From assembly GCA_963843575.1 (NCBI GenBank), contig CAWJKZ010000026.1:1-64000 (forward strand): 64,000 nt of DNA, in the 5' to 3' direction. Shown here in pieces: positions 819 to 60,595 of the stretch. The position numbers were made by a program, and so were the translations under genes. The DNA is from an uncultured Acidobacteriota bacterium (GTDB lineage Bacteria; Acidobacteriota; UBA6911). How positions within the stretch are numbered: the first letter of the stretch is position 1; each line of letters begins with the position of its first letter. The notes beneath the pieces are model-generated. The model was not told where the DNA came from and ran no database searches. It saw only the letters and a list, made by a program, of their open reading frames with translations.

Positions 819-2294
<1,476 letters not shown>

Positions 2295-2416
2295 CTCACT
2301 CTCCTGGTCCGGGTGAAACGACATTATAGCGCTTCGAGATTGGGTCGCTGAGCCCCTGAACCGCGCAATCTGCGAAAACACCGTGCCCGATAGCGACCGC
2401 AAACTGCGTCCGGGAA

Positions 2417-2575
2417 TTTGGAGTGCGGCGCCTCGGCGCCGCTTTCACTGGTCCTACGGCAGGAATGCTCGGCGCCTCGGCGCCACGCCGAATTGCGCGA
2501 TGCGACCCTGCGACCTCGGCCTTTGGCGGCGCGAGGCGCCGCCCTGAAAGCGGCGTCGAGCCGCCGCACTTCACA
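2417..2575. repeat. Inverted pair of GGAG-type REP-like palindromes
   Basis: TTTGGAGTGCGGCGCCTCGGCGCCGCTTTC (2417-2446) matches the reverse complement of 2546-2575 at 26/30; each copy is a GC-rich hairpin. Confidence 0.7.
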
Positions 2576-2594
2576 ATCAACCGTTGGACAGCCT

Positions 2595-2616
2595 CTGAAG
2601 CCCGGACCCACTTGTT
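2595..2616. repeat. Partial GTGG-type REP copy
   Basis: CTGAAGCCCGGACCCACTTGTT is identical to 38825-38846. Confidence 0.65.
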
Positions 2617-2842
2617 CTCGTGCACTTATGTTTGCGGGAAAGTGAGTGCCGCGGCTCACTTTCCCCCGCGGGCGGGCGGTTCGCCCGTCCGCGGCACGCG
2701 GGGCTAACCCGAACGCACGCATCGACTACCGTGAATTGCGGCGCCAGGGACGACTCTGGCACGGGCCGTGCCTCTGCAAGGACGACCGAACGCGGCCCGG
2801 GACGGCGGGCCGAGAGGGGGAACAAAGGGGAGCAGTTGCACG

Positions 2843-3806
2843 TCAACTTCGGTTCGCTCCCGGGCGGCGTTCGGCCAGAAACGCTTCGACCAGCGCGCCG
2901 GCTTCCGCGACTGGAATCTCCCCGTCGGGCCCGGGCTCGAGCCACCGCAGCTCGGGGTCGGCCCGGAACCAGGTGAGCTGCCGCTTGGCATAGCGGCGGC
3001 TCTCGCGGCGCGTGTCTTCCATGGCCTCTTCCAGATCGATTCTCCCCTCGAGGTAGTCTGCAACCTGTCGGTAGCCGATTGCCTTGAAGGCGTGGCTTTC
3101 GCGGGGGCACTGCCGCAGCAGCGATCCGACCTCGGCGACCAGCCCGGCATCGAACATGGCGGCCACCCGGGCGTCGATGCGCGCGTACAGGGCGGGACGC
3201 GGCCAGGCGATGCCGAGCTTCAGCCAGCGGTACCCGGACAGCGGGGATGCGGGGCTGGGCCTGCCACCAACTCATCGGTTTGCCGGTCGACAGGAACACC
3301 TCGTAGGCCCGGAGAATGCGGTCGGCGTCGGCGGGGGCGATCCGCCGTGCCACTTCCGGGTCGACGCGCGCCAGGGCGCGGTGCAACCTCGCGGTTCCCC
3401 CGCGGATCACGATGCCGCGCAAACGCGTCCTCCACCGGTCGGATCTCCCGGGCCCCTCGAACAACCCCTGGGTGAGTGCCCGGAAATAGAACCCGGTGCC
3501 GCCTGCCACCACCGCGATTCGGTTGCGCGACCGGATGTCGGCCAGCGCCGAGCGGCTCAGGGACTGGTATTCCCCGGCAGAAAAAGCCTGGCTGGGCGGG
3601 CGGAGATCGAACAGATGATGGCGTACGAGGCCCCGCTCGGCCGGGGTCGCCTTAGCCGTTCCGATGTCCATCCCGACGTACACCTGGAGGGCGTCGCAGT
3701 TGACGATCTCGCCCGAAAAGCGCAACGCCAGTTCCAGGGCGAGCGACGACTTGCCGGAGCCGGTCGGCCCGAGGACGGCCAACGCCGGATACGAGTCGGA
3801 GGTCAT
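2843..3806 (-). CDS. miaA: tRNA dimethylallyltransferase (frameshifted)
   Basis: GPTGSGKS, DALQVYVGMDIGTAK, GGTGFY, AIGYRQV, RRYAKRQLTWFR. Confidence 0.95.
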
Positions 3807-57678: not shown

Positions 57679-57785
57679 TCCCTGAGCATGCGCCAGCAGG
57701 GGTCTCCTCGGGAAGGGGATTTTACATGGAACCTTGCCCGCGGCAAGCGCGAGTCGCTATGATGCATCGAACGGGCATGAGAAAA

Positions 57786-58898
57786 ATGCTGGATAACGAC
57801 GGGTTCCGGCTGCCCAGGATCAGCCGGCGACGATTCGCCGAGGAGATTGTGGCGGGGCTGGCGACGGTCCCGTCCATTGCAGCTATGCAAGCAGACAATG
57901 GGGCACCCGCCGCCAGGCGGCCTTCCATAACCGACGTAGACGGCATCCTTGTCGGCCACCATACCCTCCGGGACCGGCCGACCGGCTGCACGGTCGTGAC
58001 CTCCGTGGAGCCTCTGGCGGCCGGGGTCGACGTGCGCGGCGGTGCTCCCGGCACCCGCGAGACCGACTTGCTGAGGTCCGAAAACCTCGTCGAGAAGATA
58101 AACGCGGTGTTTCTTTCCGGGGGCAGCGCCTTCGGGCTGGATGTCGCCACCGGGGTTTCGCGTTATCTCGAGGAGCAGGGCCGCGGCTTCGCGGTCGGAA
58201 GCGTAAGGGTTCCCATCGTGTGCGGCGCGATCATCTTTGATCTCGGCCTCGGCGACCCCAAAATCCGCCCCGATGCCCAGGCCGGTTACGAAGCCTGCAG
58301 GGCGGCGGCAGATGGCCCGGTGCCGGAGGGAAATGTCGGGGCCGGTGCCGGCGCGACGGTCGGGAAACTCCTGGGATCCGACAGGGCCATGAAGGCAGGC
58401 CTCGGTTCGTGGTGCCTTGCGCGGCCCGACGGTCTGAAGGTGGGGGCCCTGGTTGCCGTCAACTGCGTCGGGGACGTTGTCGACCCCGCGACCGGGCGGA
58501 TCGTCGCGGGTGCCAGGAAGGCCGACGGGTCAGGATTTGCCGATACAATGGAATTCCTGCGCCGGGGCGAGCCAGCCTCGCCTGTGAGGCAGAACACGGT
58601 GATCGCCGTCGTCGCGACCAATGCACAATTCGGGAAACCGCAGTGCAACAAAGTCGCGCAAATGGCGCAGGACGCGCTGGCCCGGTGCATCTACCCGGCG
58701 CACACGCCCTGGGATGGCGACACCGTGTTCTCCCTTGCGACCGGGGTCTGGCAGAACGGTGGGAAGCCGACCGATGCCGGGCTCGTCGGGGCGCTGGCCG
58801 CCGACACCCTGGCACGCGCGCTGCTCCGCGCCGTGGAGCAGGCACAGTCCTGGAACCAACTCCCGGCCGCGCGGGATTTCGTCCGCCGAACGAAGTGA
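57786..58898 (+). CDS. Peptidase family P1/S58 (DmpA-like)
   Basis: ITDVDGILVGH, TGCTV, DVRGGAPGTRET, LSGGSAFGL, GAGAGATVGK, PAHTPWDGD; start uncertain. Confidence 0.9.
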   Translation: MLDNDGFRLPRISRRRFAEEIVAGLATVPSIAAMQADNGAPAARRPSITDVDGILVGHHTLRDRPTGCTVVTSVEPLAAGVDVRGGAPGTRETDLLRSENLVEKINAVFLSGGSAFGLDVATGVSRYLEEQGRGFAVGSVRVPIVCGAIIFDLGLGDPKIRPDAQAGYEACRAAADGPVPEGNVGAGAGATVGKLLGSDRAMKAGLGSWCLARPDGLKVGALVAVNCVGDVVDPATGRIVAGARKADGSGFADTMEFLRRGEPASPVRQNTVIAVVATNAQFGKPQCNKVAQMAQDALARCIYPAHTPWDGDTVFSLATGVWQNGGKPTDAGLVGALAADTLARALLRAVEQAQSWNQLPAARDFVRRTK

Positions 58899-59699: not shown

Positions 59700-59728
59700 T
59701 TGAAACGCGCCGGAGCCGAGGGTATAAT
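59700..59728 (+). promoter_or_regulatory. sigma70-like promoter of the DUF1573 gene
   Basis: TTGAAA-N17-TATAAT, 44 nt before the ATG. Confidence 0.7.
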
Positions 59729-59772
59729 TCCGCCCGGTGCGGGAAGTCACTCACCATCCACTGGAGTTGCGC

Positions 59773-60486
59773 ATGAGGGTATATGGGATTGGGCTGACGT
59801 TGTTTTTGCTCTCGCTCGGGGCATGGCCCGCGGCGGCGCAGGACCAGGTCCCGGTGCTGGTGTTCGAGAGCCAGACCAAGGACTTCGGGAAGGTTTTGGA
59901 GGGCGCGCCGATCAAGCACGTCTTCAAGTTTGCCAACAAGGGCGGGGCCGTGCTGGAGATCTTTAAGGTCGAAGGTTCCTGAGGGTGCACCGCAGCTTTG
60001 CTGTCAGCAAAGCAAATCCAGCCGGGGCAATCGGGGCAGATCGAGGTTACGGTAAAAACGGAGGGGATAGCGGCGGGGGCCCTCAGCAAGTCGGTCACGG
60101 TGCAGACGAACGACCCGCGTCAACCCCAGGCGGTGTTGACCGTCACGGCCGTCGTCGCCCCGGAGTTCAACCTCTCGGAGCGGTTTCTCTACTTCGGCTC
60201 CGTCCCGAAAGGGAAGGAGGCGACCAGGGAGATCACGATCACGATCCCGGCCGACAACCCCGCGAAGGTCGTGTCGGCGGAGTCCACCGACCAGAGCGTG
60301 ACGGCGCGCCTGGAAACGGTGTCGCTGTCGGGCGAGAAGAAGTACAAGATCGTGGTGACCCAGAAGGCGGATTCAAAAGAGGGGTACCACTTCGGCTTCA
60401 TCGTGGCGAAGACAACGAGCGCCCTCACCCCCGAGCTGAAAATCGCAGTCCGCGGCGTGGTGGCGCCCGCACAGCAGGCCAACTGA
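59773..60486 (+). CDS. Exported DUF1573-like Ig-fold protein, predicted selenoprotein (Sec70, U-G-C motif)
   Basis: Signal peptide ending AAA-Q; DFGKVLEGAPIKHVFKFANKGGAVLEIFKVEGS-TGA-GCTAALLSAKQIQPGQSGQIEVTV...KSVTVQTNDP; TGA at 59980-59982 is in frame with both halves. Confidence 0.85.
59995..60013 (+). promoter_or_regulatory. Candidate SECIS hairpin of the DUF1573 gene
   Basis: Perfect GCTTTGCT-GTC-AGCAAAGC stem-loop starting at +13 after UGA. Confidence 0.75.
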
Positions 60487-60534
60487 TCCCTTCCGCCGTG
60501 CAGGGGGCCGCCGGGAATCTATCTCTCGCATGGA

Positions 60535-60595
60535 TGAGACCTTCGGGTCTTCGGAGTGAGCATAAAGACTTCACCCCGAAGGTCCGAAGGTCTCA
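60535..60595. repeat. Long imperfect palindrome between convergent genes
   Basis: GAGACCTTCGGGTCTTCGGAGTGA vs reverse complement of TCACCCCGAAGGTCCGAAGGTCTC (21/24). Confidence 0.6.

Follow-up and report, generated by a model that had tools for sequence, protein, structure and literature searches.

Gene structure at the locus

The window analysed here is a stretch of 64,000 nucleotides (nt) from a contig of an uncultured Acidobacteriota genome (G000). On its forward strand lies a gene (59773-60486) for a DUF1573 protein, and comparison with its relatives makes it very probable that this is a genuine selenocysteine (Sec)-encoding gene, whose product would be an exported selenoprotein of the OS_HP2/DUF1573 family. 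An earlier note on this DNA, made from the letters and a list of open reading frames (ORFs), had pointed out that two of the listed ORFs share one frame and are separated only by a TGA, that a clean TTGAAA-N17-TATAAT promoter precedes them, and that the TGA could be decoded as Sec. On the first point the sequence and the ORF list agree. ATG 59773 opens one frame, the sole interruption is the TGA of codon 70 (59980-59982), and the frame ends at the TGA at 60484-60486. In the ORF list the gene appears as two entries of one frame, 59737-59982 and 59998-60486. When the internal TGA is translated as U, the read-through protein has 237 residues and reads ...KVEGS-U-GCTAALLSAKQ... around this codon. 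The coordinates of the features are collected in Table 1.

Furthermore, the gene was compared with its counterpart in a sister genome of the same genus (G001). The two coding sequences (CDSs) align without gaps, and the similarity begins at the promoter and ends right after the terminal TGA. TGA-70 sits within the longest identical run of this alignment (42 columns), and both the TGA and the hairpin that follows it are identical in the two genomes. Because the conservation is ungapped and ends at the terminal TGA, the downstream two-thirds of the gene should be translated in this frame. The promoter-like site was recovered as well: a consensus scan gave 11 of 12 matches, with one site found against 0.2 expected from shuffles, and the sister genome keeps the site as TTGAAT-N17-TATAAT, while the sequence farther upstream is unalignable.

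Table 1. Positions in the window of the DUF1573 gene and of the features belonging to it
Feature	Position	Strand	Details and basis
Whole predicted selenoprotein CDS	59773..60486	+	237 residues and terminal TGA, read through TGA-70
Predicted Sec codon UGA (codon 70)	59980..59982	+	Cys/TGA alternation at the aligned codon of orthologues
Cys72 codon TGC, partner of Sec in the U-G-C motif	59986..59988	+	Invariant in 25/25 aligned orthologues
Candidate Sec insertion sequence (SECIS) hairpin	59995..60013	+	8-bp stem, conserved 7-bp core 59996-60012, apical loop GUC 60003-60005; fold and comparison
Terminal UGA acting as stop	60484..60486	+	Similarity to the sister genome ceases directly after it
Putative sigma-70-like promoter	59700..59728	+	TTGAAA (59700-59705), 17-nt spacer, TATAAT (59723-59728)
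Putative Shine-Dalgarno-like GGAG, 6 nt before ATG	59763..59766	+	Read from the sequence; identical in the sister genome
Predicted Sec-type signal peptide, residues 1-22	59773..59838	+	MRVYGIGLTLFLLSLGAWPAAA, then QDQ; putative cleavage site
DUF1573 / HYDIN-VesB-like Ig domain, residues 30-128, with U70-G71-C72	59860..60156	+	Pfam, NCBIfam
Second Ig-like beta-sandwich domain, about residues 134-231	60172..60465	+	Weak Pfam match, AlphaFold2, Foldseek

Selenocysteine and cysteine forms among the relatives

Relatives of the gene were searched for twice. The first search, of the window's own genome together with 40 relatives (41 in all), found matches in 30; the 30 loci fetched had TGA at the aligned codon in 19 cases and TGC in 11. 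The other search covered 51 genomes of the same bacterial family, 31 of which had a match at E <= 1e-30, and one of these matches was without the N-terminal part and gave no locus. Among the 30 orthologous loci of the family, codon 70 is TGA in 18 and TGC or TGT in 12. When all loci examined are counted (n = 42), there are 26 with TGA and 16 with a Cys codon.

In addition, the protein similarity crosses codon 70 in one frame with 40-86% identity on both sides, and the frame is kept from start to stop in the 30 family orthologues. A full-length alignment of 25 orthologues has 17 invariant columns, which flank the codon on both sides; N113, D114, F51 and N55 are among the invariant residues. The closest named relative is an uncultured Acidobacteriota metagenome-assembled genome (MAG; locus L045) with 86% identity, and a contig search of genomes returned two relatives. 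Thus TGA or TGC/TGT stands at exactly this codon, in one frame and with conservation on both sides, as the earlier note had expected of orthologues if the TGA were a Sec codon. It had also stated a conserved S-C-G-C-T motif for DUF1573 domains, which stands in part: among the 25 aligned orthologues C/U70 and C72 are invariant and G71 is nearly so, but the flanking S and T vary.

The Cys forms of the family (for example L022, L024, L027-L031, L047, L048, L052, L053 and L055) share the two-domain architecture with the present protein at 42-54% identity. They have C-G-C (in one case C-S-C) at the motif position, with TGC or TGT replacing TGA. In contrast to the TGA forms, they are without the conserved hairpin, and their synonymous codon choice is free at positions 76-80.

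It might be argued that the TGA at 59980-59982 is a base-calling or assembly error for TGC or TGT, and that the gene encodes an ordinary Cys-Gly-Cys DUF1573 protein. The assembly does have indel-type defects elsewhere, and Cys forms occur at 12 of the 30 family loci. However, those defects are frameshifts and not substitutions, and the Cys forms lack the hairpin. Furthermore, 17 further genomes of the family, each assembled independently, have TGA at this codon, in every case with the hairpin and its rare codons. We give a simple base error hardly any chance.

Raw-read contigs were obtained from four runs of four studies; the share of the sampled words in any one run was at most 0.17, and no RNA run was listed. 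The 151-nt contig of run X5 covers 59968-60118 with four differing letters, of which three were located, none of them at 59980-59982; it neither confirms nor contradicts the TGA in this strain. The read contigs carry no weight in the case made here.

The alternation between the two forms does not simply follow the Sec trait of the genomes. In genomes G003 and G010 (loci L060 and L062) the orthologue is a Cys form, yet selA is intact. Because these two Cys-form genomes keep an intact selA, the switch between Sec and Cys in the DUF1573 gene is independent of the loss of the Sec trait.

A soil-metagenome contig from run X6 matches only 59992-60026 of the window. Its loose end just upstream reads TGT-GGG-TGC, which marks its source as a relative with the Cys form, in which the stretch of the hairpin is still similar.

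The hairpin downstream of the UGA

The hairpin is formed by the arms GCTTTGCT (59995-60002) and AGCAAAGC (60006-60013), which make a perfect 8-bp stem around GTC (60003-60005). The gap between the UGA and the stem is 12 nt, so that the stem starts at the 13th nt, and the distance from the UGA to the loop is 20 nt. The codons of the hairpin are GCT TTG CTG TCA GCA AAG, and the 19-mer folded alone has a free energy of -9.0 kcal/mol. The perfect stem, its start 13 nt after the UGA and the G-T opening the loop had all been read from the letters before, and all are present in the sequence.

According to a recent review, a bacterial SECIS (bSECIS) element has a loop of 3-9 nt, an upper stem of 4-16 bp, 16-37 nt from the UGA to the loop and a minimum free energy (MFE) no higher than -7.5 kcal/mol (PMC13188914, Fig. 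2 legend). In addition, the first two positions of the loop include a G, after which G or U usually comes (PMC13188914, Fig. 2 legend). The present hairpin satisfies this model throughout, with a 3-nt GUC loop, an 8-bp stem, G then U opening the loop, a spacing of 20 nt and -9.0 kcal/mol. Thus the fit to bacterial SECIS elements, which had been claimed from the apical G, extends to the published constraints. Meanwhile, an Rfam scan of 59700-60550 at E up to 10 returned no SECIS family and only two chance matches (snoZ206 and M23).

The hairpin is kept in all 18 TGA orthologues of the family, and 94.4% of the cells are paired. When the 3′ partners were slid by 1-3 columns as a control, the pairing was only 24-51%. 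Double-sided changes were found at two pairs, namely pair 18-32, which changes from U-A to C-G once, and the outermost pair 16-34, which changes from G-C to A-U once. Furthermore, pair 20-30 turns into a U-G wobble once.

The codons of the hairpin are also frozen at synonymous sites. In the Sec forms, codons 76-80 (L-L-S-A-K) are TTG in 18/18, CTG in 18/18, TCA in 18/18, GCA in 17/18 and AAG in 17/17. By comparison, L61, E62, G85 and G88, which are equally conserved but lie outside the hairpin, are encoded by 2-4 codons each, and at each of the positions 76-78 three codons occur among the 12 Cys forms. The freezing is thus confined to the Sec forms, and it agrees with the remark in the earlier note that the A/T-rich codons here are unusual. 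This synonymous-site freezing is a stronger RNA-level signal than the covariation within the group.

A wider view was obtained from the 42 loci. An uninterrupted stem of 7-8 bp, with the loop centre 25-27 nt from the U of the UGA, is present in 25 of the 26 TGA forms; the exception, L039, has 5 pairs at that position (sequence read by eye). At least four unrelated helix sequences occupy this one shared position: GCUUUGCU-GUC-AGCAAAGC; CAUGCUU-GGA-AAGCAUG, with a G-C variant; stems closing an AGUUC loop; and GCGACUUU-GAU-AAAGUCGU. A stem of >=7 bp at the SECIS position is absent from all 16 Cys forms, whose longest stems (4-7 bp) are scattered. Conservation of the hairpin among TGA-bearing orthologues, on which the earlier reading depended, was therefore found in four ways: retention in all family TGA forms, compensatory and wobble changes, frozen synonymous sites, and other helices in the distant TGA forms.

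Two further observations concern hairpins of this kind. An uncultured Leptospirales MAG (L046:4130-4165) encodes a DUF1573 protein with a G-U-G-C-T motif and a perfect 9-bp hairpin, GTCCTTCTT-TCA-AAGAAGGAC. This is a fifth helix sequence at the same distance from the TGA; lacking a G in the loop, it does not conform to the published bSECIS rule. Meanwhile, two Cys forms, L024 and L030, have 6-bp stems (TTGCTC...GAGCAA and TCGCTT...AAGCGG) 19-36 nt after the Cys codon, close to the SECIS position. These stems may be what is left of an earlier Sec state, or they may have arisen by chance.

Selenocysteine machinery and probable decoding of UGA-70

The genes for Sec synthesis and insertion were searched for in the genome of the window. 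A tRNA-Sec with anticodon UCA is located on contig C10 (ARAGORN; Rfam RF01852, 74.6 bits vs the cut-off of 47). On contig C14 there is an intact selB frame of 657 codons (TIGR00475, 376.5 bits vs 242). The selD gene on contig C13 (704784-705759; L066, 85-1060) contains an active-site TGA of its own in ...SCAG-U-ASK..., and its two halves score 201 and 136 bits vs 125 and cover profile positions 1-156 and 155-308. In addition, selA is present on contig C8 (about 2300-3725). The machinery that the earlier note wanted to see in the genome is therefore all there; selD and selA are not intact in this assembly, as described below.

Taken together with the orthologues, the hairpin conservation and the bSECIS fit, the presence of these genes supports decoding of the UGA as selenocysteine, which would give the protein the UxC centre proposed earlier. 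The steps would be as follows. The gene would be transcribed from the promoter at 59700-59728, and translation would start at ATG 59773. The hairpin, with its loop 20 nt past UGA-70, would then recruit the complex of SelB, GTP and Sec-tRNA(Sec), so that Sec is inserted, as comparison with the relatives suggests. Translation would continue to the second UGA (60484-60486), which is without such a hairpin, and would terminate there. That the same UGA triplet would be read in two ways on one mRNA is explained by the local SECIS element.

The following points weigh against this reading. First, the fold in the single sequence is unremarkable for GC-rich DNA: the 66-nt segment has z = 0.01, and the 19-mer alone has z = -2.3, with 10 of 200 shuffles folding equally well. 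Since the fold is not statistically exceptional, the case must rest on the relatives. Second, the comparison has its own weak sides. The outermost pair 16-34 is unpaired in 8 of the 18 family forms, which leaves a conserved core of 7 bp, and five of the eight stem pairs never vary across the family, so that covariation within the group is thin. The criterion for the hairpin position was picked after the data had been seen, and the sequences are related, so their counts are not independent. Furthermore, Sec forms (19 loci; median -12.8 kcal/mol) and Cys forms (11 loci; median -11.0 kcal/mol) are not distinguished by the total MFE of the 54 nt that follow the codon (Mann-Whitney p = 0.21). The MFE of a whole segment is uninformative in GC-rich coding DNA, and stem length, stem position and codon conservation were used instead. 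Third, the best NCBIfam match of the protein, NF041425 ("OS_HP2 family (seleno)protein"), reaches 97.9 bits with C replacing U and misses the curated cut-off of 100 bits by 2.1 bits; read from DNA with the stop, the score is 87.9 bits. Fourth, a single frameshift, located at four consecutive Cs (near L066:550-556; C13 about 705250), splits selD, and selA has at least five frame changes over about 1.4 kb, or about one per 200-300 nt. The changes in selA were located only roughly, by tblastn and blastp of an intact SelA against C8. If real, the frameshifts in selA and selD would prevent the synthesis of Sec-tRNA.

This last point leads to the possibility that the Sec pathway is decaying in this organism, with selA and selD as real pseudogenes. 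UGA-70 would then terminate translation, and the locus would be a recently inactivated selenoprotein gene making a 69-residue fragment. The many frame changes in selA and the one in selD speak for it, and so does the sister genome of the same genus, in which selA is also split. However, the density of frameshifts is local to one end of C8. The RNB-domain gene beside selA is also split over frames (both genes lie within C8 about 900-3750; loci L001 and L065), and the other 12 kb of C8 carries full-length ComEC, PurH, IlvB, IlvN and PIG-L genes. selD retains its Sec-TGA and both of its halves score as full SelD, while selB and the tRNA-Sec are intact. The CDS past UGA-70 has remained ungapped against the sister genome up to the terminal stop, with TGA and hairpin unchanged. 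In addition, the two genomes are 88% (G000) and 81% (G001) complete in about 30 contigs each, which fits scattered indel errors. Thus we allow the decay of the pathway only a small chance.

The frame changes in selA and selD are probably assembly errors and not gene decay, with those in selA lying in what looks like a locally unpolished contig end. This view is based on the split RNB gene, on the intact remainder of C8, on the comparison of selA among genomes and on a paralogue of the gene on contig C24. In four other family genomes selA is a single open frame of 471-478 codons, and two of these four carry a Cys-form DUF1573. The open frame of the C24 paralogue has 264 codons vs 360-457 in relatives and is overlapped by an upstream ORF of 376 codons in another frame, which suggests another frameshift in the assembly.

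Another explanation accepts read-through of UGA-70 and leaves out selenium. A near-cognate tRNA could insert Trp or Cys, or Cys could be carried on the tRNA-Sec, and the hairpin would be a general signal for read-through or pausing. In other systems, Sec codons are known to receive Cys when selenium is short, and the residue inserted here is a prediction from the sequence. However, Cys codons are the only alternative at this site, as is characteristic of Sec/Cys pairs. Furthermore, the hairpin fits the bSECIS model, dedicated machinery is kept in the genome, and the terminal UGA is respected. We assign selenium-free read-through a very small chance, and insertion of Sec at UGA-70 is the reading that we follow below.

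In selD, a stem can be drawn 33 nt after its own UGA as CCCAG-GUC-CUGGG. Its loop is GUC, as in the DUF1573 hairpin.

Domains and fold of the protein

The protein had been described before as an exported DUF1573-like protein with an Ig fold and a signal peptide, and the profile searches and the model agree with this description, with export as a prediction. PF07610 (DUF1573) matches with E = 2.1e-26 and 92.3 bits vs the cut-off of 26.1 and covers profile positions 2-98 of 98. The HYDIN/VesB-like Ig family PF22544 matches with 64.4 bits. Formal membership in NF041425 was rejected, with the score under the cut-off, and the gene was filed under the family of the literature (PF07610 with UGC).

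The orthologues share a hydrophobic N-terminus followed by A-x-A/Q, and AlphaFold2 gives a low-confidence helix at residues 6-14. The signal peptide would thus direct the protein out of the cytoplasm, and cleavage after Ala22 would leave a mature protein of about 215 residues with two Ig-like beta-sandwich domains. For the second domain, Pfam gave weak matches to ASH (E = 4.7e-05, below the cut-off) and Cep192_D4 at residues 133-217. An AlphaFold2 model built with 25 orthologues has a mean predicted local distance difference test (pLDDT) score of 88 and shows two all-beta domains, with the strands of the second domain at residues 138-231. In this model, S69-U70-G71-C72 is a turn between strands 61-68 and 73-77. 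In the first domain, the predicted Sec70-Gly71-Cys72 would thus occupy a tight turn that links two strands.

The Foldseek matches were confined to ASH/HYDIN domains, Ig-like and in tandem (E down to 6e-11), and the structure 2qsv. A sequence search of the Protein Data Bank (PDB) gave 2qsv as the only meaningful match (E = 2.2e-05, to the second domain of 2qsv). 2qsv is an uncharacterised two-domain protein of Porphyromonas gingivalis; it matches the profile, but its aligned stretch has no Cys pair at the motif. The ASH/HYDIN-type Ig domains of ciliary central-apparatus proteins match as tandem Ig-like domains. Template modelling (TM) scores are low (0.3-0.5) because the domains are oriented differently. 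A catalytic function is not known for any of these structures, which are therefore uninformative on the mechanism.

Membership in the thioredoxin-fold oxidoreductases was considered and rejected on the all-beta model, on Foldseek matches of Ig-like/ASH type only and on the UxC spacing. Like the UxxC/CxxC oxidoreductases of this fold, the present protein has a Sec/Cys pair a few residues apart and is predicted to be exported. However, it is an Ig-like beta sandwich with UxC, and not a thioredoxin-like protein with UxxC. CXC redox motifs are a further comparison for the Sec/Cys pair.

The paralogue on contig C24 (231776-232348; L070, 1522-2073) has a C-H-C motif (...VHSDCHCTS...) replacing U-G-C.

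Possible function

Most selenoproteins of known function are oxidoreductases, according to a survey of ocean data (PMC2398784). The present protein has no Cys-type residues apart from those at 70 and 72, and both are invariant in the 25-sequence alignment. Because these two residues, the only ones of their type, are invariant, stand one residue apart in an exposed turn, and alternate between Sec and Cys at the first position, our best guess is that they form a reversible Sec-Cys selenenylsulfide redox centre that would act on extracytoplasmic thiols or oxidants. We would put the chance of this guess at about even. The second choice, which we consider unlikely, is that the U-x-C pair would bind a metal or metalloid. 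The redox, metal-binding or chaperone role suggested in the earlier note likewise stands as a conjecture.

More specifically, the U-G-C turn might be a catalytic or metal(loid)-handling centre in a selenol/thiol redox module that is built on a beta sandwich without thioredoxin fold, works outside the cytoplasm and is interconvertible with C-G-C. This proposal is tentative, and we regard it as somewhat doubtful. If the catalytic or metal(loid) reading is true, it would give the first biochemical function for the large DUF1573 family, which had 354 Cys homologues in the ocean data of 2008 (PMC2398784). No function of DUF1573 was reported in the literature retrieved by a full-text search for DUF1573.

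Relation to the OS_HP2 family

The earlier note had hoped for an unrecognised role and for novelty. However, a DUF1573 protein with Sec had already been described as OS_HP2, one of six new selenoprotein families from the metagenome of Olavius symbionts, with two TGA-containing genes (Zhang & Gladyshev 2007, NAR 35:4952, PMC1976440), and it has been modelled as NF041425. According to these authors, all the new families of the Olavius symbionts had SECIS-like stem-loops (PMC1976440). In the Global Ocean Sampling (GOS) study of 2008, OS_HP2 was listed as pfam07610 with the motif UxC, with two Sec and 354 Cys sequences (PMC2398784). OS_HP2/DUF1573 selenoproteins with a UxC/UGC motif are also listed in reviews of 2022 and 2026 (PMC9312934, PMC13188914).

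The present gene resembles the published OS_HP2 genes in its PF07610 domain, in the position of Sec as the first residue of U-G-C (UxC) aligned with Cys in homologues, and in the stem-loop directly downstream of the UGA. It differs from them in several respects. The first OS_HP2 members came from deltaproteobacterial worm symbionts, whereas the present gene is from Acidobacteriota. Furthermore, it has a second Ig-like domain, a near-invariant 7-8-bp SECIS of its own and an NF041425 score just under the cut-off. Thus the gene is an acidobacterial addition to a selenoprotein family published since 2007, and not a new class. What is new may be the acidobacterial group of two-domain orthologues, with its tightly conserved SECIS and its frequent alternation of Sec and Cys; the figures and supplements of the cited papers may already include such members.

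As far as the published descriptions go, general knowledge of selenoproteins is unchanged, since the family, the UGC motif and the SECIS-type hairpin were published in 2007 and stand in current reviews. The analysis adds a well-supported group of orthologues, in which 18 Sec and 12 Cys forms occur within one family of bacteria and the stem of the SECIS freezes five codons. In addition, gene callers cut the gene at the UGA and the NCBIfam model misses it by about 2 bits, which makes mis-annotation of acidobacterial members as fragments likely. The alternation of Sec and Cys among close relatives, together with a simple 7-8-bp SECIS, also makes the group a convenient system for studying what Sec gains over Cys in an exported protein.

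Neighbouring genes

In the window, the neighbours of the DUF1573 gene encode a peptidase S58, an SRPBCC protein, a response regulator and a histidine kinase; thyA and queG are also among them. At three orthologous loci, the neighbours encode a CLC channel, a PMT_2 glycosyltransferase, a phosphodiesterase and one more peptidase S58. A conserved partner, redox genes or copper genes were not found in the four neighbourhoods examined, and the neighbours therefore give no functional inference. In two of the four neighbourhoods, namely the window (57726-58898) and a distant orthologous locus (L054:2221-3201), the DUF1573 gene has a peptidase S58 (DmpA-like) gene upstream of it, whereas the rest of the neighbours are not the same.

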